A stretch of DNA of 64,000 nt from the IMG/VR virus record IMGVR_UViG_3300025372_000001; one strand, 5' to 3'. The notes beneath the pieces were generated by a model. The model was not told where the DNA came from and did not search any database. It saw only the letters and a list, made by a program, of their open reading frames with translations. Every line of letters begins with the position of its first letter. Positions within the stretch are counted from its first letter, which is position 1. Source of the DNA: a virus (Duplodnaviria; Caudoviricetes). Below, in pieces: positions 10,655 to 27,612 of this stretch. Position numbers and translations under genes: made by a program.

Positions 10655-10730
10655 GTCCCTATAGTGTAACGGATTAGCACCTACGGATTCTACCCGTATA
10701 GAAAAAGTTCAAATCTTTTTAGGGATACCA
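10655..10730 (+). tRNA. tRNA-Arg(UCU)
   Basis: 76-nt cloverleaf: acceptor GTCCCTA/TAGGGAT, anticodon arm TACGG-ATTCTAC-CCGTA, T-loop TTCAAAT, encoded CCA. Confidence 0.92.
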
Positions 10731-12202: not shown

Positions 12203-13195
12203 ATGCCTACTGTAATCCATCCTACCTTTGCTCCTGTTATCGGCCAAAATCTTGCCAAAGAACGCCTTTCGGCAGGTATTAACTCTGTCACTCAAGGTCG
12301 GGCAGCAACTCAACCTCTTATTACTGCTCCTTTTGGTTGTGGCAAAACAGAAGTAGCAAAACGCTATCTAGAAGCCCTAGAAGCTCAAGGATTCCGTTCA
12401 ATGAGTCTCAATTCTCCCAAAGAAATGCGCCTTGCTGGGCCTAAATGGGACGAATTTGTTCAAATGGTAATGGACTATACTACTCCTTATGTTATTCATA
12501 TCGATGAAGCACATGATATGGTGCTTGATTCAGTTAAGAATATGGTAACTCTTAAAGCCTTTCTTCTTAAGGCAATGGACAAACAAAATACGGGAAGAGA
12601 TATTCCTATTTCCGATGATCTAGTGACTCGGTTTGAACGTAATCGAAATGTATTCATTCTTACTACAAATTTTCCCCATCTTCTAGATAAATCCGGTGCA
12701 TTGCAATCCAGGTTTGATCATATTCAATTGGATACTTATGATGAAGAGGAATTGAAAGGTATCCTTGTTCGTATGATGATGTCAAATGAAATGCAATGGG
12801 ATTCCGAAGAGGTTCTTAATATCATTGCGCGGTGTGGGAGAGGTTCTGCCCGTCCTATTAAGAATGTTATTGACGAAGCATTGATTATTCATGGTAATGA
12901 AAATCCTTTAACGAAAGCACAAGCCTTGCGCACTATTCGCCTTTTGCGTATGTTTCCGAAGGGTTTGACGCATGATGAAGTTAAATTGCTTCAAATTTGT
13001 CAAAATAAGGAATTGAAAGATAGTCAGGCAAATGCAATGATTCCTAGTATGTCTCCTGCTGATCTGCGTAATGCAAAAGGTTACTTGACATCTCCTCAAG
13101 TTGGGTTTATGACTATTACCTCGCGAGGTATGGAAACAACAAGGATTGGTTCTGCATATTTGAATATGTTGTTTACACAGGGTTTCCTTGAATAA
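12203..13195 (+). CDS. ruvB: RuvB-like AAA+ ATPase (Holliday junction branch-migration motor family)
   Basis: VIGQ, Walker A APFGCGKT, Walker B IDEAH, Arg finger LQSRF, sensor II GRGSAR, C-terminal GFMTITSRG..TT like the RuvB winged helix. Confidence 0.75.
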   Translation: MPTVIHPTFAPVIGQNLAKERLSAGINSVTQGRAATQPLITAPFGCGKTEVAKRYLEALEAQGFRSMSLNSPKEMRLAGPKWDEFVQMVMDYTTPYVIHIDEAHDMVLDSVKNMVTLKAFLLKAMDKQNTGRDIPISDDLVTRFERNRNVFILTTNFPHLLDKSGALQSRFDHIQLDTYDEEELKGILVRMMMSNEMQWDSEEVLNIIARCGRGSARPIKNVIDEALIIHGNENPLTKAQALRTIRLLRMFPKGLTHDEVKLLQICQNKELKDSQANAMIPSMSPADLRNAKGYLTSPQVGFMTITSRGMETTRIGSAYLNMLFTQGFLE

Positions 13196-14478: not shown

Positions 14479-14883
14479 ATGAAACAACTACTCTATACTC
14501 CTATAGTCCAATTCTCAGGTGCTCTTACTACTGAGGATGTAGTAGATCAAATGGAAGCAGTCAATAATGAATTGATTCGTCGCGGCTATAGCGTTCCTTC
14601 TGTTTCTGCTGCGTCCAATCCCTCTTCTAATGCTCCGACACCTAAAGGCGAACAAGGCCCGCTAGAACGCAAATGGTGCGAATTAAAGAAGGTTCGCGGT
14701 GTTCGTCGCACAGAAGGACGAACAAATGAACAACAAGCCGAATACAATCTTCGTCATTATCTCGGATATACTGATGAAAAAATTCAGAAAATCCTAGATG
14801 AATATGTTCCTGAACACCATAATGAACATCTTCCATCTATTATCGAAGATGATGAAGAGGTTCCTGAACATAAGCTAATGTAA
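14479..14883 (+). CDS. Hypothetical protein with an acidic tail
   Basis: 134-aa ORF. Confidence 0.65.
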   Translation: MKQLLYTPIVQFSGALTTEDVVDQMEAVNNELIRRGYSVPSVSAASNPSSNAPTPKGEQGPLERKWCELKKVRGVRRTEGRTNEQQAEYNLRHYLGYTDEKIQKILDEYVPEHHNEHLPSIIEDDEEVPEHKLM

Positions 14884-14974
14884 TTTAAAAGATTTAGTTG
14901 ATAAAAGTCCTTTACAAAGGGCAGATAGGTGGTAAGATTGATTCGTTAAAAGAAACAATTCAACCAACTCTACT

Positions 14975-15073
14975 ATGAAACTATCCTTCTTTGATTATCT
15001 ATCTTTGCTGCTCTTTACAAGCATCGTTGTCTATGCAACAGGTAAAGAATTGGGCTTTTTTATCAATCTCTAA
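14975..15073 (+). CDS. 32-aa single-TM peptide (below cutoff)
   Basis: MKLSFFDYLSLLLFTSIVVYATGKELGFFINL, 11 nt upstream of the glucosaminidase. Confidence 0.45.
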   Translation: MKLSFFDYLSLLLFTSIVVYATGKELGFFINL

Positions 15074-15084
15074 TATTCTTAAAT

Positions 15085-15921
15085 ATGTCAACTCTACTTA
15101 AGATTATTCTACCTGTTGCAACGGTTGTTGGGACTTTTGCTATCTATCCAGTTTATAAACAACACTGGATTAATGCTAATCCTAATAAACCTGTTTCAAA
15201 AAATCTTCTGCTAGATGCAGTTGAACAACTCAAATACAAAAGCGAGATTAAGATTTTCTCCTTGTTGACAGGAAAAGATGTAACTAAGAAGATGTGGAAA
15301 GAAACAAAGGTAAATTCTGATGAGTTTACTTTGCCGCCTGATCTTCCACCTATGTTGGATATTCCTAGTTATCCTGTTGCAAAGATTACTAAAATTCCCG
15401 ATGTGGCTTCTCCTGTTAAAACAGTTGAACTTTCTCCTGAATATAAGGTAAATGTTCGTTCTGTTGTTAATGCAACAGTATTGGATAAGAAGTTAGAAGG
15501 TGTTCTTAGGGGGAAAGGACAAGTGATTATTCAAGCAGCACAAGAATATAACATTTGTCCTATTTTCTTGACAGCGATTCTGATGCATGAATCTGCTAAT
15601 GGTAAATCTAATTTCGCAGAAGATAAGAATAATGTGGCGGGAATTATGACAGTTGCTAAAGTTAAACAAAAAGGTAAATGGATTAATAAATCTGTTGCAA
15701 AAGAGTTTGACAATGTGGAAGAATGTATTAGATTCACGGCGAAACTGTTAGGTAGTAAGACATATGCAGGAGGTAAACGAGATACTATCGGAGAGATTCA
15801 GCAAGTGTATTGTCCTGTTGGGGCAAAGAATGATCCAAAGAAACTTAATGGGCATTGGCTCGGAGGAGTAATGGGATATATGGAAAAACTTTGGGGAAAA
15901 ACTATTCACGTCCGTTCTTAA
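15085..15921 (+). CDS. Membrane-anchored peptidoglycan hydrolase, glucosaminidase (GH73-like)
   Basis: N-terminal hydrophobic anchor; AAQEYNICPIFLTAILMHESANG (catalytic Glu), KNNVAGI, F.NVEECI, YCP...N..W. Confidence 0.8.
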   Translation: MSTLLKIILPVATVVGTFAIYPVYKQHWINANPNKPVSKNLLLDAVEQLKYKSEIKIFSLLTGKDVTKKMWKETKVNSDEFTLPPDLPPMLDIPSYPVAKITKIPDVASPVKTVELSPEYKVNVRSVVNATVLDKKLEGVLRGKGQVIIQAAQEYNICPIFLTAILMHESANGKSNFAEDKNNVAGIMTVAKVKQKGKWINKSVAKEFDNVEECIRFTAKLLGSKTYAGGKRDTIGEIQQVYCPVGAKNDPKKLNGHWLGGVMGYMEKLWGKTIHVRS

Positions 15922-15950
15922 TAAATGCTAACTTAAAAAATAACAAAAAC

Positions 15951-16208
15951 ATGAAAATCGAAACAAAATATAATGTAGGTGATATTGTGCATCTGATGCA
16001 CGATCAAGGGGTTCTAGCAAAAGCAACTACTGCAAAAATCTTGACAGTTCATTTCACTCAAGACGATTCTAATTTCCAGAAGGGCAATATTACCTACAAA
16101 TATGCTCTTAAACAGAAAGGTACTGCCTATTATGATGAAGCCAATACTTCCACTTGTAACGAGGTTTATCTTTTCCCCACCAAAGAAGAACTCCTTGCCA
16201 GTCTTTAA
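15951..16208 (+). CDS. Hypothetical protein (MKIETKYNVGDIV; start reassigned)
   Basis: Common phage SH3-like N-terminus. Confidence 0.6.
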   Translation: MKIETKYNVGDIVHLMHDQGVLAKATTAKILTVHFTQDDSNFQKGNITYKYALKQKGTAYYDEANTSTCNEVYLFPTKEELLASL

Positions 16209-16219
16209 TTAATAAAATT

Positions 16220-16453
16220 ATGAATACAGAATTTTATCATGTTACATGGAATGGGTGGAATGGGGCGAATCCTTGTTACTATGTGGAAGGAACAAAGGAA
16301 AATGGTCGAATTTTAGCTACTCGTTTCCAAGTTACGTCCATTATTCGTAATGGTAAACGTGTTAAGGCGAAACTTGAACCGGTGTATCATGGAGGCGCAT
16401 TCCCTCTTACTTGTAAGATTCGCAAACTGAAGAAAAATCCTTTTAAAGACTGA
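16220..16453 (+). CDS. Hypothetical protein
   Basis: Packed ORF. Confidence 0.55.
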   Translation: MNTEFYHVTWNGWNGANPCYYVEGTKENGRILATRFQVTSIIRNGKRVKAKLEPVYHGGAFPLTCKIRKLKKNPFKD

Positions 16454-16457
16454 TGAT

Positions 16458-16844
16458 ATGGAAATTCGAGATTATTCCAGGTATCGAGATATTGTACAAT
16501 GGGAATTGGAAACACTTGCAAAGGTTCCTTTCATTAAAATTGTTAAGAATGAACCTGTTCTTACAGTTGGATATGATGTATGGCTTAGTCTTGAACATAT
16601 TGAAAAGACTGCTAATAGTATGCATTCCGAATTCAAAAATCTCTGGAAATGGGTGAAAAATGTTTCTCCTCATTTGACAGAATTTAAGACTGCATATCAT
16701 ACTTTGGTTAATCTCTTGTTTCTTTTGAAATATGATATTCAAGAGGAATTGAATAGATGGAAAACAGAATTAAAGAACAATAATCAAACTTATTTTTATA
16801 ATTTGCCAAAGGTTTCTGCTAATTGGTACTCGACAAACAATTAA
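16458..16844 (+). CDS. Hypothetical protein
   Basis: Packed ORF. Confidence 0.6.
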   Translation: MEIRDYSRYRDIVQWELETLAKVPFIKIVKNEPVLTVGYDVWLSLEHIEKTANSMHSEFKNLWKWVKNVSPHLTEFKTAYHTLVNLLFLLKYDIQEELNRWKTELKNNNQTYFYNLPKVSANWYSTNN

Positions 16845-16862
16845 ACCGTGATATACTCTGTT

Positions 16863-17351
16863 ATGAAACCAGATATTGAAGAAGTACTGAGTCAGTATAA
16901 TCTTGCCAAGAAATTCCTAAATAAACGACTTAGGGGTGTTGATATGGAAGTATGTGATGTTGTCGTCACTTTTGAGAATTACCAAGTTAAGACTGAATTG
17001 TTTAATAAACAGAAGTTTTTGATTATTCTTCTGCTAGTTGGAGGCGAACAATATATTTTTGATCCTGAGAATCCTCCGAAACTACAACAACCAGTTATTC
17101 GTGTAGAACAACAGCACACTCAATACATTTTTACTGCTAGGCTTAATGGGGATTATTGGAATTTCGATGATGGAGATGATGTTTTAAGTGTCACTACTTA
17201 TGCTATCAAAACGGCTTATGAATTTATGAAATCAATTTATTCTGATTCACATGCTCCTTCTCCTGAAATTCAATCCGTTATCATTAACTCCTTGATCTTT
17301 CCTTATTCTGTGTTAGAATCCATGTTCAACATTCAAAACGAAAACCAATAA
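16863..17351 (+). CDS. Hypothetical protein (start reassigned to ATG 16863)
   Basis: Promoter-like TCGACA-16-TATACT just upstream. Confidence 0.6.
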   Translation: MKPDIEEVLSQYNLAKKFLNKRLRGVDMEVCDVVVTFENYQVKTELFNKQKFLIILLLVGGEQYIFDPENPPKLQQPVIRVEQQHTQYIFTARLNGDYWNFDDGDDVLSVTTYAIKTAYEFMKSIYSDSHAPSPEIQSVIINSLIFPYSVLESMFNIQNENQ

Positions 17352-17353
17352 AA

Positions 17354-17650
17354 ATGAAACAAACTATCCTCATTAGCACAATTTGAGCCATTCTCGTTCA
17401 TCTTCTTTTCCTCTTTCCTCTATTTGGATTTGTTCTGCTTTATCTGGCAATGGGATATTTTATGGATAAAGTTGACCTAAAATCCGGCACTAATGATACT
17501 ACCACTGCATTTGTTTGCTTTGCTCTTCCCCCTGTTGCATTCGCTGCAAGTATCTTATCTGGTGAACAAGAACATATGAAAACAGTCCTTAAAGAATGGT
17601 TTCCTAATTTCAAATTCCCTAAATTCCGTAGTCCAATCCATTTTAATTAA
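17354..17650 (+). pseudogene. Membrane protein gene interrupted by an in-frame TGA at 17384-17386
   Basis: MKQTILISTI*AILVHLLFLFPLFGFVLLYLAMGYF... continues in frame into track ORF 17450-17650. Confidence 0.6.
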
Positions 17651-17747
17651 TAAATTTATAACTCTTAAACAAACTATCATCGTTTCAGTTATCGTTCATT
17701 TCCTTCTACTTCATCTTTCGTCAATCCTGCTTATTGGATGGCTAGGA

Positions 17748-17951
17748 ATGATTGCCTATGCACTATATCTAGTTTACCTAATTGAATGCAATTTCGATGA
17801 TCATAAGATTGAGATTGTTATGCAAATTTTACTTGCCATAACATGTCCGCCCCTTTCGATTCTTCTTTGCTATATCTTTGATAAAAAACTTATTCCTGAA
17901 AATAATTGGATCGTTAAACAAGTCGATTCTTTGATCTTTTTCTGGAAGTAA
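17748..17951 (+). CDS. Membrane protein (5' end possibly degraded)
   Basis: Hydrophobic; upstream KQTII-like sequence resembles 17354 but is out of frame. Confidence 0.5.
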   Translation: MIAYALYLVYLIECNFDDHKIEIVMQILLAITCPPLSILLCYIFDKKLIPENNWIVKQVDSLIFFWK

Positions 17952-18004
17952 TTTGACAAACTGATAGTATAAGGTAAAGTAACAATCTCATTAGAAAATA
18001 AACA

Positions 18005-18745
18005 ATGAATACAAAAAACATCCTTCTTACCATGGCATTGCTTCTGGCATTGCCTTTCTCCAACATTCTCAATGCAAAAGGGAGTTCTAGCTTTAGCTCA
18101 AGTCGAAGCAGTTCGTCTAGTAGCGGATTTAGTAGCAGTCGAAGCTCTGGAAGTAGCGGATTTAGTTCTTCTCGTTCAAGTGGTTCATCCTCTTCTGCTG
18201 GATTCAGTAGCAGTCGAAGTTCAACCCCTTCTGCCCCCAAAAGCAGTGGATTCAGTAGCAGTTCGGGATCAAGTACAGGCAAAGGTTGGTTCGGGGGAAG
18301 CAGTTCAACCCCTAAGAATAGTTTTGATCATTCTTCTCAACGCTCTTCTCTAACTCCGTTTAAACCAAAGGAACAATATGTTTCAGAATTTAAAGCACAA
18401 AATGCGAATAAGTATCCAACTACCTTTAGTTCTCCTCCTGCTCAACGTCCTTCTTACATTCCACAAACCACTGTAATCAATAATACACATTATCCAATTA
18501 CATATAATCAATCGGCAGGCGGTTATGGTTTTGTTAATGCCCTTGGTGCATTCGTTCTCTATGATGCTATTAGTGATATGGCAGTCCATAATTATCAACG
18601 AGATGCTGCTGCTCATGTTCATGCTCAACAAGTAACTTACAATGATTATGATAATGGTTGGTCACTTGGTTCCATTCTCCTTAGTATCTTTGTGATAGGA
18701 TTTATCGGAATCGTTCTTGTGCTCTATTCAATCACTAATATATAA
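18005..18745 (+). CDS. Exported Ser/Gly-rich low-complexity protein with signal peptide and C-terminal TM
   Basis: Signal peptide ending LNA-K; SSSRSS/SGFSSS repeats; C-terminal WSLGSILLSIFVIGFIGIVLVLY. Confidence 0.8.
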   Translation: MNTKNILLTMALLLALPFSNILNAKGSSSFSSSRSSSSSSGFSSSRSSGSSGFSSSRSSGSSSSAGFSSSRSSTPSAPKSSGFSSSSGSSTGKGWFGGSSSTPKNSFDHSSQRSSLTPFKPKEQYVSEFKAQNANKYPTTFSSPPAQRPSYIPQTTVINNTHYPITYNQSAGGYGFVNALGAFVLYDAISDMAVHNYQRDAAAHVHAQQVTYNDYDNGWSLGSILLSIFVIGFIGIVLVLYSITNI

Positions 18746-18749
18746 AAAT

Positions 18750-19316
18750 ATGAAAATGTTAGAACTATCTGATGCAATCAGCACATTCCAAAATGGAATG
18801 CAAACCTTTACTCCTACTATTGTTCGAGAAGGATTTATCAACAACACGGGAATCAAACTAGAATATCTTGATCCCTTGGGAGAAGCAGTATTTGTTACTT
18901 GCACAGTCGATGGCCTAAAGACCTTTATTCTAATGACTGCTGATAAGCGGTTACCTTTTGGTGACACAAGGCAAACCATTAAAGATAATGGATTGGAATT
19001 TCTTTATCAGAATTGTGATAGTGAATATACTGGTAAATGGGAATATTCATTTGATCTAAATGATGATGAAAATTCTACAAAATATCAAATCAAGAATACT
19101 TTCTTTGAAGAATATAAAGAAAATCCTTTGAGGAATGGACTTAAGTTCAATGAGCTTCATGCTAAATTCATTCTATATTTTCCTGTTGAAGGAAAGACAG
19201 AGAATGTTGATGGATTAGCAATGTTGGAAGTTGGAAATGATCTATTTGACAATAGTGGACTTGTTCATTATTACAATTTTCGACTAATTTTGGAAACCGA
19301 CGTTAGTTATCTTTAA
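18750..19316 (+). CDS. Soluble beta-rich protein, possible Psp-operon partner (DUF2491/DUF4178-like, weak)
   Basis: Sits between the Ser-rich protein and PspA; similarity is inferred from context and C-terminus only. Confidence 0.45.
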   Translation: MKMLELSDAISTFQNGMQTFTPTIVREGFINNTGIKLEYLDPLGEAVFVTCTVDGLKTFILMTADKRLPFGDTRQTIKDNGLEFLYQNCDSEYTGKWEYSFDLNDDENSTKYQIKNTFFEEYKENPLRNGLKFNELHAKFILYFPVEGKTENVDGLAMLEVGNDLFDNSGLVHYYNFRLILETDVSYL

Positions 19317-19382
19317 TCGGTTGACAAACTCTTAAACTGATGCTAAGATAATACTGTTAGATAAACCAAAAACAAAAATAAT

Positions 19383-20105
19383 ATGATCCTACTCACTACA
19401 ACTATTGAATTCACAACGCTGTTGATCCTCCTTTTCCTTCTGGTGGATTTATTTACAGGCTTTAAGATGATTAAATCCCTGTTTAATCGACTGCGATTGA
19501 AGGCAGATAATGCTGCCGAAGCTATTCGTGATCCTGAAGCAGATGCACATGCCGCTCTTGCTGATATTCGCCAGCAAAAAGCTCGTATGATTGAACTTCG
19601 TAAACAAATCCTTGTTTCAATAGGACTTGCAAAAAGTAAAGTCTCTAAAGCATTCGATGATGTTAATAAGTACGAACAACTTGCAATGCTTGCAGGAAAA
19701 GCTCAAAAAGCTGATGATGTTAAACTTGCTCTAATGAAGAAAGCAGCAGCAAATCAAAAACTTGCAGATGCAAATGAACAACTCAGTAAGCTTACTAAGC
19801 AAGAAGATAGTTTGGAAAATAAGATTGCAGAATTTGATGCCTTGATTGATAAGGCGGAAAGTGATAAGGAATATCTATCTTCTGATCTTAAGATTAATCA
19901 GTTTAATATACAAGTTAATGAAGTGTTGAAGAGTAACGGCAGTGCTCTTGGTGCAATTGATAAACTTCGTGCTGATGTCGATAAGAGTCGTATTGAAGCA
20001 GAAGTATCTGGTGAACTCAGTGACGATTCTAAGAGTTTGGAAGCAAGGTATGCACCTGCTAATGGTGTCACGGCGGAAGATGTCAGTAAGTATCTGACTG
20101 CATAA
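19383..20105 (+). CDS. pspA: PspA/IM30 (bacterial ESCRT-III) family protein with an N-terminal hydrophobic extension
   Basis: LFNRL..KA..AAEAI.DPE helix, long coiled coil, A.LA....K.DD...AL..K, C-terminal SLEARY. Confidence 0.85.
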   Translation: MILLTTTIEFTTLLILLFLLVDLFTGFKMIKSLFNRLRLKADNAAEAIRDPEADAHAALADIRQQKARMIELRKQILVSIGLAKSKVSKAFDDVNKYEQLAMLAGKAQKADDVKLALMKKAAANQKLADANEQLSKLTKQEDSLENKIAEFDALIDKAESDKEYLSSDLKINQFNIQVNEVLKSNGSALGAIDKLRADVDKSRIEAEVSGELSDDSKSLEARYAPANGVTAEDVSKYLTA

Positions 20106-20128
20106 ATAAGAACAATAAATAATAAACC

Positions 20129-20162
20129 AAAAACCCGAAGGATTCATTTCTTTCGGGTTTTT
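20129..20162 (+). terminator. Intrinsic terminator after pspA
   Basis: AAAAACCCGAAG...TTTCGGGTTTTT hairpin. Confidence 0.75.
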
Positions 20163-20189
20163 GTGGTACTAACTAAAATTAAAATATAT

Positions 20190-20420
20190 ATGTTTATTCT
20201 ATTTCATATTTTCCTTGCATTGATTGCTCTTGCCTTGTTTGTGGTCTATTGGGCGATTGATAAGGAGCTTGATTTGACCGAGGATGAGCGAGCAGCAGGC
20301 TATATCCTGGCAGTAGTCTGTCCCTATCTGTTAATCCCGTTCATTTGTGCAGTTGACCATGCTGCTATTTGGGCCGATATTAAATGGTTATGGAATCTTG
20401 TTGACACTGATATTACTTAA
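20190..20420 (+). CDS. Two-TM membrane protein (start reassigned)
   Basis: Hydrophobic segments. Confidence 0.55.
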   Translation: MFILFHIFLALIALALFVVYWAIDKELDLTEDERAAGYILAVVCPYLLIPFICAVDHAAIWADIKWLWNLVDTDIT

Positions 20421-20513
20421 GTTATAATGATCTATGACAACACCGATCTTTCTAATCATTCTTGGATTATTTTTAATCCATAGATTGTATCACATTTTCA
20501 CCGATTAAGTCCT

Positions 20514-20714
20514 ATGATTACTCTTTTGCTAGCTCTTTTGATTTTAAATTATGTAGCATTGTTATTGTCGTTTCTTGTGGCATCAGCATTCAATGAAAAG
20601 CTGATTACCACAAAAAAAGAATTTCTATTAGTGATTATACCATATGTGGTATTAATCGGTGCAATCATAGGAGTTGGTATATCAATTAAAGATTATTATG
20701 AATCCCTCAAATAG
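20514..20714 (+). CDS. Two-TM membrane protein
   Basis: Hydrophobic segments. Confidence 0.6.
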   Translation: MITLLLALLILNYVALLLSFLVASAFNEKLITTKKEFLLVIIPYVVLIGAIIGVGISIKDYYESLK

Positions 20715-20979
20715 AAAATAATATGCTGAATCCTACTCAACAAGAAATATTTGATTTTCTAAAACAAAATTTAGAAATCGGAATTGAAATTCTTCAATAT
20801 CCCGGCTCTCCGCGTGTTAAAGTTGATTTATATTTGTGCGGTGAACAAATATCTTCCGACATCGACGAATTGTAACAAAAAATTATCAATTATAAAAACT
20901 AGAATATCTAGATAAAACTACTAAAAATTTAAGTAATAAAACTTAACTAATAAAAATCGTTGAATACTGGCACCCCGCT

Positions 20980-21153
20980 ATGAAATATCTTCTAATTCTC
21001 TTTTCAATTTTCTGTTTGAGTTCATGTGTTGAACCTTATGGATACTATAACAGTTATCCGACATATTATCCAATTTATCGCTATAATCGGACATATTATG
21101 GGGGTTATGGATATTCAACCATGCCGTATTTCGGTCATCATTTCCGGTATTAA
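20980..21153 (+). CDS. 57-aa Tyr/Gly-rich lipoprotein (missed by the track)
   Basis: MKYLLILFSIFCLSS-CVEPYGYYNSYPTYY...YYGGYGY; lipobox LSSC. Confidence 0.65.
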   Translation: MKYLLILFSIFCLSSCVEPYGYYNSYPTYYPIYRYNRTYYGGYGYSTMPYFGHHFRY

Positions 21154-21194
21154 TCGGTTGACAAAGAATCATTTATCAGCTAATGTTCGTTCTT

Positions 21195-21386
21195 ATGAAA
21201 ATCAAATCACTCCTTCCTCTCATTGTTGCTCTTGCAGTCTCTACTGTTGTTGTCTTTGCCGTCATTGATGCGGATAAAGAACAAGAACTACATAAAATTA
21301 CAAATCCCGTTAAAGTGGAGATTCATCCTAAGTATGGCACCGTTCATGTTTATGGAGAGAATGACGAAGTTCCAATTTTTAAATAA
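21195..21386 (+). CDS. Single-TM protein (start reassigned)
   Basis: Own promoter near 21158; N-terminal TM. Confidence 0.55.
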   Translation: MKIKSLLPLIVALAVSTVVVFAVIDADKEQELHKITNPVKVEIHPKYGTVHVYGENDEVPIFK

Positions 21387-21585
21387 TTTTATTCCTTAAA
21401 CGTTACGAGGAATAGAAGTGAGAAAAAGAAAAGCAATACATATTTGTGAAAGTTAGGTGATTTTCCTTGTGTATTGCTTTTTCTTTTAAAATAAAAACCT
21501 TTATGACCGTATTTCCCCTTGTTATCATCTTCATAATCATCTATCTCATTGCAGGTATTATTGCATATACACAACGTTAAAATAT

Positions 21586-21855
21586 ATGATTCCTGATCCT
21601 TTATCTTACTGTTTGTTAGTTCTCAAGAAGTTAAAAGATTGTTCTATTAAGGATTATGCATGCATTTGGGTAAATTCTCGAATGGAATTTTGTCGAACAT
21701 ATTGTAAGGGATTTATATTTTCTAATCGGTTTGGTCTTGACTTTTTTGAAAAAGTTGCATATTGGCTGTCACAAGATGATTATCTATACTTTGATGAAAT
21801 GAGCGAATATGATAAAAACTTTAATCGTTGGTTGAAGCAATGGCGTTTGACATAA
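21586..21855 (+). CDS. Hypothetical protein
   Basis: Ends inside the -35 box of the next promoter. Confidence 0.5.
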   Translation: MIPDPLSYCLLVLKKLKDCSIKDYACIWVNSRMEFCRTYCKGFIFSNRFGLDFFEKVAYWLSQDDYLYFDEMSEYDKNFNRWLKQWRLT

Positions 21856-21919
21856 CCCTTTTATAAGTTATAATCCTGTTGTCAGACGAAACAATACAAA
21901 ATCTAACTCTACTAACACT

Positions 21920-22174
21920 ATGTCAATCTTCAATAACACCACTGCTCGTCCTCTTCGCACTTGTAAACATTGGTCTTACCGTGCTCCTGATAAGCGCAAT
22001 CCTGCCATGCATAGTTTTCTCTCTGTGAAGCCTATTGCAACGGTTAAACCACCTTCTAAAGGCATCTATCACTTCAATGGGGAAACGCTTCCTAACTTTG
22101 ATGCAGTGAAGGATGCTGCTCGAAAACAGAACTTTGGTATCCTTCGCATGGGTGCCGTGAACATTAATCTTTAA
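21920..22174 (+). CDS. Basic hypothetical protein
   Basis: Promoter TTGACA-16-TATAAT upstream. Confidence 0.65.
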   Translation: MSIFNNTTARPLRTCKHWSYRAPDKRNPAMHSFLSVKPIATVKPPSKGIYHFNGETLPNFDAVKDAARKQNFGILRMGAVNINL

Positions 22175-22185
22175 TCTTTAAAAAT

Positions 22186-22701
22186 ATGCGTATCATATCT
22201 AAGTGGAAGGACTACTATGATCATGAAGTAGCCTATTATGGTTATGACGAAACACGAATTTATGATCGAAGGGCACTTCAGACTAGTAGATTTGTGTCCT
22301 TTTCAGGTTCTACCCATTTACATGAATTTATCATTTGTGGAAAAAAGTTTCCGATGGTTACTAAAAATGGATTGTATTATACTGAACCTTCTGATAAACT
22401 GGATGGTTGGTCAAATATAAACTTGGAGCGATATAAGGGAGTTTCTTCTGATATAAATCAGAAATTGCAACAACCTGTGTTGTTAGCTGCTTATGGAGTA
22501 TATACTATTCCAATTCTAAGTACATATGGATTTGCATCTATCATTGACAGTCGTACAATGTATGGTATGATATATGACTATCTGGGATGGTTGAAAGATA
22601 ATCCTCCTCCGCCAGATAACCAAACAAACAAAGGAAAAATCATTAGTCATGGATTTGATCTGAAAAGCTCATTCCGTCCTAAAATGAAGAAAGCAGCATA
22701 A
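22186..22701 (+). CDS. Conserved-type phage protein (MRIISK.KDYYD...GFDLKSSFR)
   Basis: Terminal motifs typical of a widespread phage family of unknown function. Confidence 0.65.
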   Translation: MRIISKWKDYYDHEVAYYGYDETRIYDRRALQTSRFVSFSGSTHLHEFIICGKKFPMVTKNGLYYTEPSDKLDGWSNINLERYKGVSSDINQKLQQPVLLAAYGVYTIPILSTYGFASIIDSRTMYGMIYDYLGWLKDNPPPPDNQTNKGKIISHGFDLKSSFRPKMKKAA

Positions 22702-22704
22702 TAT

Positions 22705-23136
22705 ATGACCTTTGCACAAAAACGTTTAAATGTAATTATTGCTGAATTTATTGGTTGGAAATTTTGTCCTCCTTCTCAATACGAAGCACCCCATTCTTTA
22801 AATTATAAAATAGAGGCATCTTCTTGTTGGTCAAGACCAGGAAATGAAGTATGGCAACTAGAACAAATCCCTAATTATATTGATGGTGAAGAATCATTAT
22901 ATAATTGTCGAGAAATGGAAAAGGTGTTTGTAGATGATACGAATGCCCTTCAATTGAACTATTATGAGAATTGGTTAGCACATTTTTGTAATTTACAAAA
23001 CGTTATTAAACAACGAAAACCTATACTGCATGCATTTAGTTGGCATGCTTCCGCACTAGTTCGGGCTATATCATTCGCCTTAGCATTCGATCTTATTACT
23101 CAAGATGATATAAAAGAATTGTTGACAAACCCTTAA
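22705..23136 (+). CDS. Phage ABA-sandwich (BC1872-like) domain protein
   Basis: IAEFIGW...IPNY...EMEK...HASALVRAISFALA pattern. Confidence 0.5.
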   Translation: MTFAQKRLNVIIAEFIGWKFCPPSQYEAPHSLNYKIEASSCWSRPGNEVWQLEQIPNYIDGEESLYNCREMEKVFVDDTNALQLNYYENWLAHFCNLQNVIKQRKPILHAFSWHASALVRAISFALAFDLITQDDIKELLTNP

Positions 23137-23324
23137 ACTAAGAAATTCCAGAAGAAGAAGCAAGAGAAATGATTGAATCAGGTGATTGGGAATTTGTAGG
23201 AGAAAATACTTGTGGCAGTGTTTTCTATGATGGTAAAACCGGACAATTAATTGAAATGGGAGGGGAAACGGCAACTCTTCATACTCCTGACTTGACAAAC
23301 CCTTAAACTAAACGATACTACATT

Positions 23325-23537
23325 ATGTTCAAAACAAAACTCACTCTTGATATTGAAATTGAAACCCAATTTGGTCCCGAAGATGCGGTTAATATGATTC
23401 GATATATGACAAATAATGTCAATGTTCCTGCTATTCGTTCTGTTACTCTTCATAATCTACAAACCGATTATTCCCCATTGACAGAACAAGATGCGAATCG
23501 TAAGGTTATGTCAGGCTATCCAATTACTTTGAAATAA
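23325..23537 (+). CDS. Hypothetical protein
   Basis: Has its own promoter. Confidence 0.55.
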   Translation: MFKTKLTLDIEIETQFGPEDAVNMIRYMTNNVNVPAIRSVTLHNLQTDYSPLTEQDANRKVMSGYPITLK

Positions 23538-23712
23538 AAAATATGAAACTTGCTCCCGTATCCTCCGTGTTTAATACAGGTAAAACCTCTCCTAAAGGAG
23601 TTCCTATTTGGCAAGCAACTATCCGAAAAGATGGTAAAGATAGCACTTGCACAGGTGCTAAATCCGAAGTAGAATCTTGGGTAAACAAAAGTCTGAAATA
23701 AACAACTAAAAT

Positions 23713-23949
23713 ATGATTACTCTTTATTTCCTTGCAGTTTCTCTTGTCAGTCTTTTAGGTATGTATCTGTTGTATCTTCCTTACAAAATGAAGGTGGAAT
23801 GGAAATGGCTAGAAAATCTTGATTCAGTTGGTTTGTTTATCGTTGTAGTAGTCTGGTTCACTCTTCAAGCGGCATTGCTCAGTGTTGCAGTGTATTCATT
23901 GGTTGCTGCATTGATTTCCCCTCTCATTTATCTAATCCCTAGCTTTTAA
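23713..23949 (+). CDS. Two-TM membrane protein
   Basis: Hydrophobic segments. Confidence 0.6.
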   Translation: MITLYFLAVSLVSLLGMYLLYLPYKMKVEWKWLENLDSVGLFIVVVVWFTLQAALLSVAVYSLVAALISPLIYLIPSF

Positions 23950-23988
23950 TAGTTGACAAAGTAAATTAAATATAGTAAAATGAAAAAT

Positions 23989-24075
23989 GGCGATGTGCTG
24001 AAACTGGTAAACAGGAAAGTTTTAAAAACTTTTGCAAGAAATTGCTTGTCGATTCGATTTCGACCATCGCCACCA
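23989..24075 (+). tRNA. tRNA-Leu(UAA)
   Basis: 87 nt; acceptor GGCGATG/CATCGCC, anticodon arm AAAGT-TTTAAAA-ACTTT, long variable arm, encoded CCA; promoter TTGACA(23953)-17-TAAAAT. Confidence 0.9.
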
Positions 24076-24088
24076 TTTAAAAAAAAAT

Positions 24089-24493
24089 ATGAATAACTCC
24101 TCAATTAAAACCCTCTTTAAAGATTCACTCTATTTGGTGATTCCTGCCACCTTAATCAGTCTTACTCTCTTTGTTTCGCCTCTTTGGGGCAATGTGCTGC
24201 TGGCATGGCTAATGTTTGGAACATTGCTAACCATCGTAGCATTTGGGCTTATCCTTTTTTGTGAAACTATACAATCCTTTCTTCCTGAATTAAAGGAAAT
24301 CTTGAAAGAAGAACATGTTGAATATAACAATGCATTGTTGAAACTCCAAACATTTACATTTAAAAATGTAATTTCTATTGGTTTCATTATCTTATATGCA
24401 TATTATGGTTGGTGGATTTGTTTCGCTCTTGCCTCTTTCAATTTCCTTATTCCTAAAGTATTTGCAACATTCGCAGAAAAGAAAGAAGAATAA
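24089..24493 (+). CDS. Multi-TM membrane protein (start reassigned)
   Basis: About 4 hydrophobic segments; the track start overlaps the tRNA. Confidence 0.65.
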   Translation: MNNSSIKTLFKDSLYLVIPATLISLTLFVSPLWGNVLLAWLMFGTLLTIVAFGLILFCETIQSFLPELKEILKEEHVEYNNALLKLQTFTFKNVISIGFIILYAYYGWWICFALASFNFLIPKVFATFAEKKEE

Positions 24494-24495
24494 TT

Positions 24496-24906
24496 ATGGA
24501 AATACCAAGAATACTTTTAGTAGATGATGATTTCAATTCAAAGAATTATGTGGAATCATTAGAAGAACATGGATTTTTTGTTGAACATGCTACAACCCCA
24601 GACATTGCATTGCAGTTGTCGACTAACAATGGGCGATATACATTAGTTATTATGGAATGTATTATGTTGCCAGGGGAAACATTAGCTAACGAATCAGTAG
24701 ATGATGGAATGGAAACGGGTATAGTTTTATTTGATAAAATAAAAGAAATTGCTCCTATGACTCCTTGTTGGTTTTTGACTAATGCACGTTCTGTTGATCT
24801 TATTATGAAAATGGTGGATTTAGTTGGAATAGAAAGAGTTTATCGCAAATATAGTACTCTTCCACGAAGAATCATTCGAGAAATTCAAGAGACTTTTTCC
24901 AGATAA
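24496..24906 (+). CDS. Stand-alone CheY-like receiver domain with the phosphoacceptor Asp replaced by Glu
   Basis: ILLVDDD, LVIME-CIMLP at the usual LD-xMP position, conserved FLT and YRK. Confidence 0.8.
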   Translation: MEIPRILLVDDDFNSKNYVESLEEHGFFVEHATTPDIALQLSTNNGRYTLVIMECIMLPGETLANESVDDGMETGIVLFDKIKEIAPMTPCWFLTNARSVDLIMKMVDLVGIERVYRKYSTLPRRIIREIQETFSR

Positions 24907-25048
24907 CTCTTGACGTAAAAGAGAAAAGATGGTAAAGTCTAATATAGAATTGAACGTAGCCTTCTAATGACAAAATCGATTGTAGTCTAAAAATCTCCTG
25001 ACTAATAGTTAGTTGGTTACTTTCAGTTCTAAACCAAAATAAACAATT

Positions 25049-25267
25049 ATGACAAATATCTATACAGTTCAAACAAGAAGCGAAGAAACTGGATTGAATT
25101 TTTATTCATCTTCAAATCTTGAATCCGCTCTGGTAGAAGCAAAACTTGCAGCCGAAAAAGATTCTTCTATTTGGAAAATTTCTTACATTGATGAAACGGG
25201 TAACAGTGTACGATTGGTGAAGAATGAAGAAAACGAATGGGAAAATCAACCCTTGACTCTTTCGTAA
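25049..25267 (+). CDS. Hypothetical protein
   Basis: Packed ORF. Confidence 0.6.
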   Translation: MTNIYTVQTRSEETGLNFYSSSNLESALVEAKLAAEKDSSIWKISYIDETGNSVRLVKNEENEWENQPLTLS

Positions 25268-25324
25268 AAGATGGTAAAGTAAGGACGTTATAGAGAACTT
25301 GATTCTCAAAATTTATTAATTAAT

Positions 25325-25414
25325 GGTTGGTGGGGGCTGCCCGGCGGTAGCGGCGGACTCATAATCCGTGTTGTGTTTAAACACCTTCAGGATCGACACC
25401 TGCACCAACTACCA
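25325..25414 (+). tRNA. Non-canonical tRNA with CAU anticodon, long variable arm and 8/4 acceptor/T-stem
   Basis: GGTTGGTG/CACCAACT acceptor, GCGGA-CTCATAA-TCCGT anticodon arm, GTGT-TTAA-ACAC V-arm, CAGG-ATCGACA-CCTG T-arm, ACCA end; promoter TTGACT(25253)-16-TAAAGT. Confidence 0.75.
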
Positions 25415-25614
25415 TTTTCACTTCTTGAATAAACCGCTTATACTACTTCACAATGAAAACCGTTAAACAACTTATCGAATGTGGAGATTGGGAAGAATTT
25501 TATCTAACTGATAAAAAAGAAAAATTACCCAAAACACCTGAAAACGAGAAAACCTTTTTAGAATGTAAAGTTAAATGGAGTAGTGTTGCACAAAAAATTG
25601 AGAAATAATCTCTT

Positions 25615-25827
25615 ATGTCTAAACCATCTAAAACGAAAGTAATTGAAATTACCAAAGAAGAGATTGAAGAATTGATTTTTCAGCATCTTGCTCAGAAGGG
25701 TTATGCTCTTCAAGGTAAAATCAAATTTGAAACAGAATTGGATGATGATAGGATAGATAATGAAATTTTTTGGTCCCGTGATCCCGTAATCGCATTCAAT
25801 GGAGCAAAAGCAACAGTGTTAGATTAA
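25615..25827 (+). CDS. Hypothetical protein
   Basis: Packed ORF. Confidence 0.55.
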   Translation: MSKPSKTKVIEITKEEIEELIFQHLAQKGYALQGKIKFETELDDDRIDNEIFWSRDPVIAFNGAKATVLD

Positions 25828-25829
25828 TT

Positions 25830-26060
25830 ATGAACAATCTTGAAGAAATTAAAAAACGTGCATTCAGTTGGGCATTAACCCCTTATGATTCTTGTGAAGA
25901 ATGTATTGATCTAGGATATTCTAATACACTTAGGAATTGTGGGCAAGAGGTTTTAACCCTTTTAGGGGAAAGAATTCCTGAACCTTGTGAAGATGCATCA
26001 TTTTGTATGAATGAAGAACCGCATGAAAAACATGATTGTCTTTTTCCTGTATTTGAATAA
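25830..26060 (+). CDS. Hypothetical protein
   Basis: Packed ORF. Confidence 0.55.
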   Translation: MNNLEEIKKRAFSWALTPYDSCEECIDLGYSNTLRNCGQEVLTLLGERIPEPCEDASFCMNEEPHEKHDCLFPVFE

Positions 26061-26099
26061 CTTCTTGACAAGTTAAGGACTTAGTTTATAATTCCTCTC

Positions 26100-26654
26100 A
26101 TGAATATCTTTCCAATTGCAGATAATTGTTGTCCTATTCTTTCTGCTCAACAACTTTGTTCCAAACACAGTTCCCGAATGCCCTTGGAGACGATGGGAAT
26201 GCTCATGTTTGCCTTTCCAGAAGGTTCTACACCTTATCCTAACGAATATACTAACCGACACTATAAACACCCGTCTAGCATCTGGTTGAGAGAATCAAAA
26301 GATAATTTTGAATGGGCATTGATTCATGGACTGGCGCAATGTGAAGAATATACCCGTCGTTACAAACGTGAGCATGCTTCTCAAAAACATATTGAATGGG
26401 CAGAAAAGAATTATAATTATCTTTCTTTTAAACAAAATGGTTTGACTCCATTTGCCCGGTGTTTCGGTCCATTTAAACAAGAATTAGATAAGACTGAACC
26501 TGATACATTAATTGCCTATAGGAAATTTTATTGGTTGGATAAAAATGGATTTGCAAAATGGCCTAGCCAGAAAATGATTCCTGATTGGTGGCCGGAAATA
26601 TCTGATAAATTCGTTGACAAATCTTTCCGAGATGGCGTCTATACAAAACGATAA
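26100..26654 (+). CDS. Pyrimidine-dimer DNA glycosylase (DenV/endonuclease V)-like protein
   Basis: MNIF...CSKH..RM.LE..GML, HPSSIW.RES..N..W, EY..RY.+.H motifs. Confidence 0.75.
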   Translation: MNIFPIADNCCPILSAQQLCSKHSSRMPLETMGMLMFAFPEGSTPYPNEYTNRHYKHPSSIWLRESKDNFEWALIHGLAQCEEYTRRYKREHASQKHIEWAEKNYNYLSFKQNGLTPFARCFGPFKQELDKTEPDTLIAYRKFYWLDKNGFAKWPSQKMIPDWWPEISDKFVDKSFRDGVYTKR

Positions 26655-26696
26655 ACAATCCTTGACTTAGTTAATAAAAATGTTATCATACGTCCT

Positions 26697-27612
26697 ATGA
26701 ACAAACCAACTCATCTTTCTAAGGTAAGCGAATGGCAAGCATGGCTAAAGCAATTTATGCCAGTAAAAAAAAGCAAAAGAGCTTGCTGGTTCTGTCCGAA
26801 ATAAATTAGGAATTAAACATGTCAATGAATTCAATCTCAAAAATAAGAAAGTAGAAAATGGATTGATATTACTTAAACAGAAATATCCAAAGTTTTCTAA
26901 GAACAATACTTCATTGGCAAGAATTGCAACGACGGCGGCACAAAATTCAAATCAAAGGTTATCCAATTGGACAAGTCCTAAATCATCCACATTGATTAAG
27001 AAAAAAGGTGATTATGATGCATTGAATATGGGCCGATATAAAGGCAAATTCAATCGTATTATTTGGAATTATGAACCGCGATATACTTCTTATTATCGGA
27101 TTACACAAAATAAGAAATCAATTATTTATGTTTGGGGATTTGAAGGTGAAATGAATAAGAAAATCATTCATGCTCCGAAAGGAATGCAATTTGAACGAGA
27201 TGATAAAGGCTTGCTACTTAAGCGGCTATCTGATGGAATGGATTATCATCCATCGACGGAAGATTTATTAAATGCTAGATTTGCCACATTGATTAGGCAA
27301 ATAATGGCTAATAATTACAAATTGCGAATTGAAGCAAAGCGAATTGCAAAGAATCATGAAAGATTTGAAAGAATTTTTCAAAAAGATATTCCGACAACAA
27401 TGGTGACTTTGTTTGATTCGAGAAAAGCGGGAAATTGTATTGAAGGAACATTGTCATTTGCACAACATAGATTAGGAATTAGTCGGGAAGAAATTCTTAA
27501 AGGTGGATTTCTTTTTAAGGTGAATGCTAAGAAATTGATGGATAAGAATGAGCCAAGGGCAATCAATGCAGTTAGAGCCGCCTGGAATCGCGAAACTTTG
27601 GTTTGTATTTGA
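26697..27612 (+). pseudogene. About 300-aa basic protein with a +1 frameshift in an A8 run (26765-26772)
   Basis: ATG 7 nt after TTGACT-16-TATCAT; removing one A joins MNKPTH...PVKK to AKELAG...LILLKQKYPKF. Confidence 0.65.

Follow-up and report, generated by a model that had tools for sequence, protein, structure and literature searches.

Why would a bacteriophage carry a gene for PspA, and which of the genes around it belong to the same system? The question is raised by a 64,000-nucleotide stretch of phage DNA (IMG/VR record IMGVR_UViG_3300025372_000001, here called the window), in which a gene for a PspA/IM30 protein follows genes for an exported membrane protein and a soluble β-rich protein and is surrounded by genes for small membrane proteins. 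A first-pass annotation of the window had treated the whole block 17354–21386 as one module. We find instead that the conserved unit is 17953–20167, ~2.1 kb in length, and that it comprises three genes, which we call A, B and C, the last being the PspA gene. Our preferred reading, which we hold to be fairly probable though by no means assured, is that the triad is a conserved operon of large (jumbo-size) phages in which a membrane-tethered PspA keeps the inner membrane sealed and the host energised during infection.

A PspA/IM30 homologue with an N-terminal transmembrane anchor

Gene C (19383–20105, + strand) encodes a protein of 240 amino acids in which a hydrophobic N-terminal extension of 27 residues precedes a PspA/IM30 body of the ESCRT-III superfamily (19464–20105), made up of an α0-like amphipathic helix, an RDP motif, a helical hairpin and C-terminal helices. 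The protein aligns in register with the Pfam family PF04012 (PspA_IM30; E 4.2e-6, profile positions 4–196 of 220), and two of its orthologues score above the gathering cut-off of that family (P0012, 36.1 bits; P0031, 34.6 bits). With phmmer, its only PDB matches are solved Vipp1/PspA chains (E 2e-3, query residues 44–229 against chain residues 18–203), and a profile of 12 homologues matches solved Vipp1/PspA structures, 6zvr and 7o3w among them, at an E of 3e-10 over chain residues 16–205, the region of helices α1–α5. Against 1.8 billion cluster representatives the same profile retrieves 310 proteins at E ≤ 0.001 and reaches canonical PspA_IM30 proteins at an E of 1e-22. Those matches that have the canonical length (215–230 residues) align from profile position 26–28 onward, and the three that were tested all pass PF04012, with 60–147 bits. 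Residues 28–48 of gene C are amphipathic (hydrophobic moment ~0.45), as expected of an α0-like helix, and the family-invariant R49-D50-P51 is aligned to the EDPE of Vipp1 that opens helix α1. Judged by these alignments, gene C is a PspA/IM30 homologue, as the first-pass annotation had it, and the match to solved chains argues for an ESCRT-III fold.

The extension had been described as an unusual hydrophobic segment of ~28 residues. It is indeed a conserved feature of the protein (residues 1–27, 19383–19463, + strand): it is present in 11 of the 12 close homologues, with D22, T25 and G26 near-invariant in a D..TGF motif. We considered whether it could be an artefact of open reading frame (ORF) calling, with the internal Met29 as the start of an ordinary PspA, and rejected this explanation, since the extension is conserved as protein, Met29 gives way to Ile, Phe or Leu in 5 of these homologues, and at the DNA level the upstream ATG is kept. 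Judged by this conservation, the extension is a real, translated, clade-wide transmembrane anchor. No basic residue precedes the hydrophobic segment and K28, K31, R36, R38 and K40 follow it, a positive-inside pattern from which we predict an outward N-terminus and a cytoplasmic PspA body. Helix α0, at the N-terminus, faces the enclosed membrane in solved Vipp1/PspA assemblies, so a transmembrane helix placed N-terminal to α0 would be geometrically compatible with polymerisation on a bilayer.

The distribution of the anchor was examined in 159 PspA-family sequences, namely the 12 close homologues and further cluster representatives from the profile search. In 65 of them a hydrophobic segment precedes the PspA body and lies among the N-terminal 45 residues. 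In a quick maximum-likelihood tree, the window protein falls in a clade of 44 sequences (Shimodaira–Hasegawa-like approximate likelihood ratio support 98) of which 43 are anchored. Because the tree was built from the C-terminal 205 residues only, the anchor could not have driven this grouping. The sister group of 108 representatives includes 22 anchored sequences spread over several branches, and over the whole tree the well-supported branches can be explained only if the anchor was gained or lost at least five times, so that PspA must have acquired or shed its anchor on several occasions. The sole unanchored member of the clade, P0006, is the PspA gene of the locus L001, where an in-frame TAA interrupts the extension: in the counterpart of 19383–19463 (L001:5923–6000) the stop follows 6 codons, the rest of the anchor is conserved in frame, and the gene was called from an internal Met (212 residues). 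The TAA may mean that the anchor was lost recently, or it may be a sequencing error or a codon that is read through.

None of the neighbouring genes scanned matches the Pfam families of PspB/PspC, LiaI/LiaF or PspF-type proteins, and the fused anchor may replace such a membrane recruiter. At the other end of the protein, the anchored clade shares a tail (gene C residues ~219–240) with the motif L-E-x-K-Y and, ~10 residues on, V-S-D-E-D-V-x-K-Y-L, which is missing from canonical PspA. Like the MIM motifs at the C-terminus of ESCRT-III proteins, the tail may serve to dock a partner.

Genes A and B accompany the PspA gene across deep divergence

We compared every related locus with enough DNA, most of the relatives being short metagenomic contigs, and gene calls, alignments, tblastn and hidden Markov models (HMMs) of the A and B families gave the same result. 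The combination A–B–PspA is present in 9 of 9 distinct loci with upstream sequence, at identities to the window that fall to ~25–30%. An A-like and then a B-like gene stand directly 5′ of the PspA gene in L001, L002 (= L003), L005, L006, L007 (= L013 family), L008, L014 and L015, and L004 keeps the same order with three small genes between B and PspA. Even in the most distant loci, L014 and L015, the family HMMs detect both partners (B, E 5e-12 to 6e-16; A, E 3e-47 to 6e-16). The neighbour co-conservation that would be expected of a module thus holds for genes A and B, which were retained at every locus that could be assessed. The genes surrounding the triad differ completely from locus to locus and include those for RNA ligases, a K+ channel, YopX, RtcB, HNH and LAGLIDADG endonucleases and amidoligase-like proteins. 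The loci are found on phage-like contigs of up to 215–262 kb.

The PspA of L015 has no anchor and passes Pfam (cluster representative P0061, 60 bits). Since this anchorless PspA still has A and B beside it, the partnership of A and B with PspA is older than the anchor or independent of it. A more distant anchored PspA on the 2.6-kb contig L011 has a different upstream gene.

Directly 5′ of the triad in two lineages lies a gene for a K+ channel (L006:4087–4761 and L004:2622–3311), with Pfam matches to Ion_trans and Ion_trans_2. The two channels are 64% identical and have the canonical TTIGYGD selectivity filter and an S4-like Arg/Lys repeat, and in L006 the channel and the triad form a tightly packed string of four genes. 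No K+ channel was found in the window.

Gene B has a YjfK-like predicted fold and a predicted contact with the PspA hairpin

Gene B (18750–19316, + strand) encodes a cytoplasmic protein of 188 residues that has no hydrophobic segment. An AlphaFold2 model based on an alignment of 17 family members is confident (predicted local distance difference test score, pLDDT, 94.2; predicted template-modelling score, pTM, 0.89) and consists mainly of β-strands, in agreement with its earlier description as a soluble β-rich protein. Among the AlphaFold database clusters, DUF4178 and DUF2491 families are the top matches of the model (TM-score 0.50–0.57, probability 1.00); among the Swiss-Prot structures the best match is Escherichia coli YjfK, a DUF2491 protein (E 3.9e-4, TM-score 0.56), followed by Mycobacterium tuberculosis Rv2597 (TM-score 0.55–0.56); and in the ESM Atlas it is DUF4178 (TM-scores 0.61 and 0.68). 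All of these comparisons set a predicted structure against predicted structures, at TM-scores of 0.5–0.6. No counterpart of the fold was found among solved structures (Foldseek E > 0.07; best VIA-align Z 4.0).

The likeness does not extend to sequence. The Pfam models for DUF4178 (PF13785) and DUF2491 give 0 matches to the 17 family members even at an E of 10, hhalign of the gene B alignment against E. coli YjfK returns a probability of 0.35%, which indicates no sequence kinship, the distant B-like proteins of L014 and L015 have no Pfam match, and Pfam, PHROGs and the language-model atlas yielded nothing usable for gene B by sequence. Of the profiles that the first-pass annotation had named for the module, PspA_IM30 was accordingly matched by gene C, while DUF2491, DUF4178 and DUF1517 found no sequence match among the module genes. 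On the strength of its model, we regard gene B as a putative YjfK-fold, PspA-associated protein rather than a member of either Pfam family, and probably as a partner of PspA.

A predicted complex of gene B with PspA residues 28–240, computed with both family alignments supplied, suggests how the two might meet. The complex scored 0.52 (runs 0.46–0.54) and the best control 0.01; the mark used for this score is passed by 58 of 80 solved complexes and by 2 of 110 mismatched pairs, with scores of 0.60 or less accounting for 7 of the 80 solved complexes and for both of the passing mismatches. On the PspA side the predicted interface comprises residues 88–116, including the invariant Y97, E98, L100, A101, L103, A104, G105, V113 and A116; residues 97–105 form an invariant Y-E-x-L-A-x-L-A-G motif at the tip of the hairpin. 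On the B side it comprises residues 7–17, in the conserved N-terminal helix and within a conserved motif, E-L-S-D-x-x-S-x-F-Q-N, as well as residues 181–184. The predicted interface pairs the most conserved patch of one family with that of the other. Given the strong prior that deep co-conservation provides, we regard the modelled contact as likely but unproven.

Gene A is a predicted type-I membrane protein

Gene A (18005–18745, + strand) encodes an exported protein of 246 residues with hydrophobic segments at 6–24 and 221–239. The first belongs to a signal peptide whose cleavage context (A|KG) is conserved; it is followed by ~75 residues of low complexity, rich in Ser, Gly and Arg (residues ~26–100), by a conserved juxtamembrane domain (~118–195) with the invariant residues P118, K120, F129, K130, Y137, R148-P149, Y151-I152-P153, Y174-G175 and Y186-D187, and by a C-terminal transmembrane helix (221–239) with a very short tail. 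The exported Ser/Gly-rich transmembrane protein that the first-pass annotation had seen at 18005 is thus borne out, and the arrangement of segments predicts a type-I topology with the bulk of the protein in the periplasm. The AlphaFold2 model is confident at residues ~120–210 only, where it shows a helix, a small sheet and a long helix that runs into the transmembrane segment. No usable match to gene A came from Pfam, PHROGs or the language-model atlas. An antisense ORF of 122 codons over its Ser-rich repeat (17914–18282, − strand) was rejected as a gene and is taken to be a by-product of the low-complexity coding repeat.

Transcription signals delimit the unit

A sigma-70-like promoter candidate precedes gene A (17953–17980, + strand; TTGACA-16-TAAAGT, 10 of 12 matches in a consensus scan). 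The PspA gene has a promoter region of its own (19321–19365, + strand), as had been proposed from the sequence: a TTGACA-17-TAAGAT promoter with a TG element (19321–19349) is followed by a TGTTAGATAAA box. The −35 and −10 elements, the box and the ATG at 19383 all recur in L001 and L005, two loci in which the identity of PspA to the window protein is only ~65%. The box itself is an invariant 11-mer, TGTTAGATAAA (19355–19365), which lies just 3′ of the −10 element and is kept in L001 and L005 amid variable flanking DNA. Its role may be that of an operator, an element of the transcript leader or a phage middle-promoter box.

Downstream of the PspA gene, the terminator that had been proposed is found as an intrinsic hairpin with a U tract (20126–20167, + strand; ΔG −22.4 kcal/mol, z −5.6, with 0 of 200 shuffled sequences folding as well). 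A simple scanner missed it because its loop and stem exceed the limits of that program. No T4-type late promoter was found near the module, and TATAAATA is under-represented in the window. The operon is probably transcribed by the host sigma-70 polymerase.

The window and the genes around the triad

Matches to PHROGs for a portal protein (60971–63214; phrog_213, E 1e-79), a baseplate wedge protein (51878–53638) and a clamp loader, together with two tRNA genes, tRNA-Arg(TCT) at 10655–10730 and tRNA-Leu(TAA) at 23989–24075, mark the window as phage DNA. Its G+C content is ~33%. A PspA protein identical to that of the window is recorded on 4 contigs, the longest of 262,045 bp, which points to a large phage, and the DNA of the window is present in freshwater metagenome runs. 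Close relatives are scarce in the collections searched. Among 50,697 deposited phage genomes the window DNA has no nucleotide relatives, its PspA no tblastn match and gene B no match; two family patterns searched in 185,579 bacterial and archaeal species genomes gave no close relatives; and IMG/VR, scanned with the single proteins P0041 and P0052, gave no match.

The first-pass annotation had flanked the triad with about six small membrane proteins and a lipoprotein, a count that comes close: there are five transmembrane proteins and one lipoprotein, together with a soluble ORF. Upstream, on the + strand, 17450–17650 and 17748–17951 each encode a small protein with one transmembrane segment and no Pfam or PHROG match. 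Downstream, on the same strand, 20190–20420 and 20514–20714 encode proteins with two transmembrane segments according to hydrophobicity, 20723–20875 the soluble ORF of 50 residues, 20980–21153 a Tyr-rich lipoprotein with the lipobox LSSC, and 21183–21386 a protein with one transmembrane segment. We rejected these flanking genes as members of the module, since they recur in the nearest relative, L001, only, bar one displaced copy in L005. By tblastn, 17748 recurs in L001 alone and 17450 in L001 and, displaced, in L005, while 20980 and 21183 are the only downstream genes to recur, in L001 only. The first gene after PspA can be aligned with its L001 counterpart alone (23% identity); L002, L004 and L005 do not keep it. 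The module is therefore a matter of three genes, and the wider block 17354–21386 does not stand as a unit.

Two promoters that match the sigma-70 consensus at 12 of 12 positions (TTGACA-16-TATAAT) lie on the + strand among the downstream small membrane-protein genes, at 20401–20428 and 21847–21874. Further downstream, the tRNA-Leu(TAA) gene overlaps the 5′ end of the listed ORF 24032–24493, whose true start is probably further downstream. A stand-alone receiver-like domain is encoded at 24496–24906, 4 kb downstream of the module (PF00072, E 3.5e-5; 24.4 bits, below the cut-off of 30.2 bits).

Upstream, an AAA protein of 330 residues (12203–13195; Pfam AAA, E 2e-9; clamp loader by PHROG) is the only AAA gene near the module. 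Solved structures yield no significant match to it, the scans turned up no RuvB-specific family, and it is linked to the triad in the closest relatives only; as a possible Vps4 analogue it was rejected, lying 5 kb upstream in the window and being absent near the triad in L002, L004 and L006. A glucosaminidase gene (15085–15921; PF01832, E 1.6e-11), whose product has an N-terminal hydrophobic segment, may encode a membrane-tethered or SAR (signal-arrest-release) endolysin or a virion lysozyme. It lies ~2 kb 5′ of the triad, a position that it keeps in L001 and L005 only, and is not so placed in L002, L004, L006, L014 or L015.

Comparison with known PspA systems

PspA genes are already known from large phages: 189 of them have been reported in 184 huge phages, 9 of these from freshwater, and others in 667 IMG/VR genomes, with the proposal that phage PspA stabilises the membrane and maintains the proton-motive force (Yuan & Chen, bioRxiv 10.64898/2026.10.24.761521, October 2026). 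Those genes resemble the one described here in their large carriers and their membrane-associated neighbours. The neighbours themselves are different, being Ca2+ P-type ATPases, SPFH proteins, ABC transporters, a CPBP protease, DUF350 and TPM proteins, and the text of that preprint contains no mention of an N-terminal transmembrane anchor on PspA, of DUF4178, DUF2491 or YjfJ, or of a Ser-rich exported partner. Cultured phages also carry PspA_IM30 homologues: Acinetobacter phage vB_AbaM_phiAbaA1 (KJ628499) has a gene annotated as ‘putative phage-shock protein’, and phrog_26980 is a PspA family, yet its match to the window protein falls short of an E of 0.1.

The closest bacterial likeness is to yjfJ-type pspA operons, which include cytoplasmic β-rich DUF4178/DUF2491 proteins and in some cases a K+ channel (Ravi et al. 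2024, mSystems, PMC11237479). In the E. coli yjfI-yjfJ-yjfK-yjfL-yjfM-yjfC operon and in CesT/Tir–PspA operons (PMC11237479), as in the phage triad, a PspA gene stands beside genes for a protein with the DUF4178/DUF2491 fold and for an envelope protein that is exported or lipid-anchored. The phage triad differs in its reversed gene order, with the partners before pspA, in its transmembrane-anchored PspA and in its phage carrier. The analogy with yjfJ–yjfK drawn in the first-pass annotation therefore holds for the fold of gene B and for the association of the genes but not for sequence: hhalign was negative for gene A against E. coli YjfM and for gene C against E. coli YjfJ, as it was for gene B against YjfK. 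Genes scanned across 14479–27612 gave no Pfam match to DUF2170 (CesT/Tir, YjfI), DUF350, DUF1190, spermidine synthase or ATP-grasp.

Compared with canonical PspA, Vipp1 (IM30) and LiaH, gene C has the same domain, an in-register alignment over α1–α5, an α0-like helix and RDP in place of the canonical EDP. For the canonical proteins, which are soluble or peripheral, recruitment depends on PspBC, LiaI or lipid stress, whereas the phage protein has a transmembrane helix fused to its N-terminus. More than 98% of ~2,500 PspA homologues consist of the PspA_IM30 domain alone, the exceptions being tandem repeats and fusions to NlpC/P60 or PspAA (PMC11237479). A transmembrane fusion is not among these exceptions, and here it is conserved over a clade of 43 cluster representatives.

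A model for the triad and its alternatives

We propose that the N-terminal helix would tether the PspA of gene C permanently to the cytoplasmic face of the host inner membrane, giving a constitutive membrane association that is independent of host PspBC, LiaI and PspF. The N-terminal helix of gene B would dock on the tip of the PspA hairpin and control or nucleate polymerisation, and gene A would pair with the PspA anchor within the membrane and couple the polymer to the periplasmic side, where it might report on it or stabilise it. Together, the three proteins would lay a carpet or polymer of PspA on the inner membrane and so reduce the leakage of ions and protons over a long infection cycle. 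We favour ion homeostasis because a K+ channel adjoins the triad in the L004 and L006 lineages, because a K+ channel is likewise present in some bacterial operons of the yjfJ type (PMC11237479) and because the recent preprint (bioRxiv 10.64898/2026.10.24.761521) independently makes the same general proposal for phage PspA.

Several observations weigh against this proposal. The window protein itself scores 27.0 bits against PF04012, below the gathering cut-off of 33.9 bits. The interrupted extension of L001 may mean that the anchor is dispensable, or may reflect an error in the contig. The predicted complex of B with PspA is graded ‘weak support’ by the prediction tool, and the fold assignment of gene B, which comes from models of moderate TM-score and has no sequence similarity to DUF4178 or DUF2491 behind it, leads to a family that is itself uncharacterised. 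The fold of gene A gave nothing above noise in the ESM Atlas or among 48,161 PDB chains (best Z 6.4, helices only). Among the sequencing runs that carry the window DNA there is no RNA run. Finally, a permanently anchored ESCRT-III protein could equally shape a membrane as protect it.

The last of these points leads to one alternative, that A, B and a polymer of the anchored PspA together bend the inner membrane, or draw it into tubules, to make a vesicle, tube or platform for replication or virion assembly. PspA and Vipp1 are ESCRT-III proteins that enclose and remodel membranes, a covalent anchor forces lipid onto every subunit and would favour remodelling, and the module occurs only in very large phages (contigs of 69–262 kb), it being from phages of this size that intracellular compartments are known. 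We nevertheless think this alternative improbable, since no disassembly ATPase is apparent (the AAA gene 12203–13195 is not near the triad in L002, L004 or L006) and the linked K+ channel points to ion homeostasis. A role in counter-defence or superinfection exclusion, in which the triad would neutralise depolarising or perforating abortive-infection effectors, or reseal or block the entry lesion against secondary phages, seems to us rather unlikely. It would fit the sigma-70-type and probably early promoters before A and C, a localisation that is constitutive without host Psp regulators, and a periplasmic domain of gene A sited where incoming phage or envelope damage would be sensed. Conservation of the triad to ~25% identity is, however, more typical of a housekeeping function in infection than of fast-evolving genes, and A, B and C have no Pfam or PHROG match beyond PspA, although no profile library of defence or anti-defence genes was searched.

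Holins are triggered by loss of the membrane potential, and the module could also act on the timing of lysis, holding the proton-motive force and delaying the triggering of holins in the manner of an antiholin or of lysis inhibition. The membrane-anchored glucosaminidase 2 kb upstream, with its position kept in L001 and L005, would fit such a role, but this linkage is absent in L002, L004, L006, L014 and L015, no holin was identified, and the promoters look early rather than late, with no TATAAATA box near the module; we consider it decidedly improbable. That there is no functional PspA module at all, with gene C a generic coiled coil and a gene order that close relatives share simply by common descent, is very improbable indeed. 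The sub-threshold Pfam score of the window protein would allow it, and coiled coils do attract spurious matches (weak FemAB and gag matches appeared in the Pfam scan). The alignment, however, is in register over ~190 residues and includes an EDP-type motif, orthologues pass the cut-off, the profile retrieves 310 proteins of which 3 of 3 tested at canonical length pass PF04012, and the triad is retained at 25–30% identity within otherwise unrelated neighbourhoods. The profile searches and the distant loci already contradict this explanation, which is largely refuted.

Beyond the proposed sealing of the membrane, we entertain as an unlikely but more far-reaching possibility that the triad is a new kind of ESCRT-III machine, in which every PspA subunit would be embedded in the bilayer, coupled to the envelope through A and gated by a YjfK-fold adaptor, and which would build or scaffold an intracellular membrane structure or patch the entry lesion. 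If this were true, it would give the first functional handle on the DUF4178/YjfK family, as a regulator that binds the PspA hairpin directly.

Implications for PspA biology

The phage module bears on how PspA and Vipp1 are recruited and regulated outside the paradigms of E. coli (PspBCF) and Bacillus (Lia), and offers what appears to be a minimal, self-contained set: an anchor, an effector and two dedicated partners within ~2.1 kb. Membrane tethering that is independent of regulators appears to be conserved over deep divergence, and the uncharacterised DUF4178/DUF2491 fold of YjfK and Rv2597 becomes linked to a specific predicted contact on the tip of the PspA hairpin. To the recent finding of PspA in large phages our analysis adds a defined operon, and the triad, with the K+ channel that adjoins it in some lineages, supports the idea that big phages manage the energetics of the host membrane themselves.

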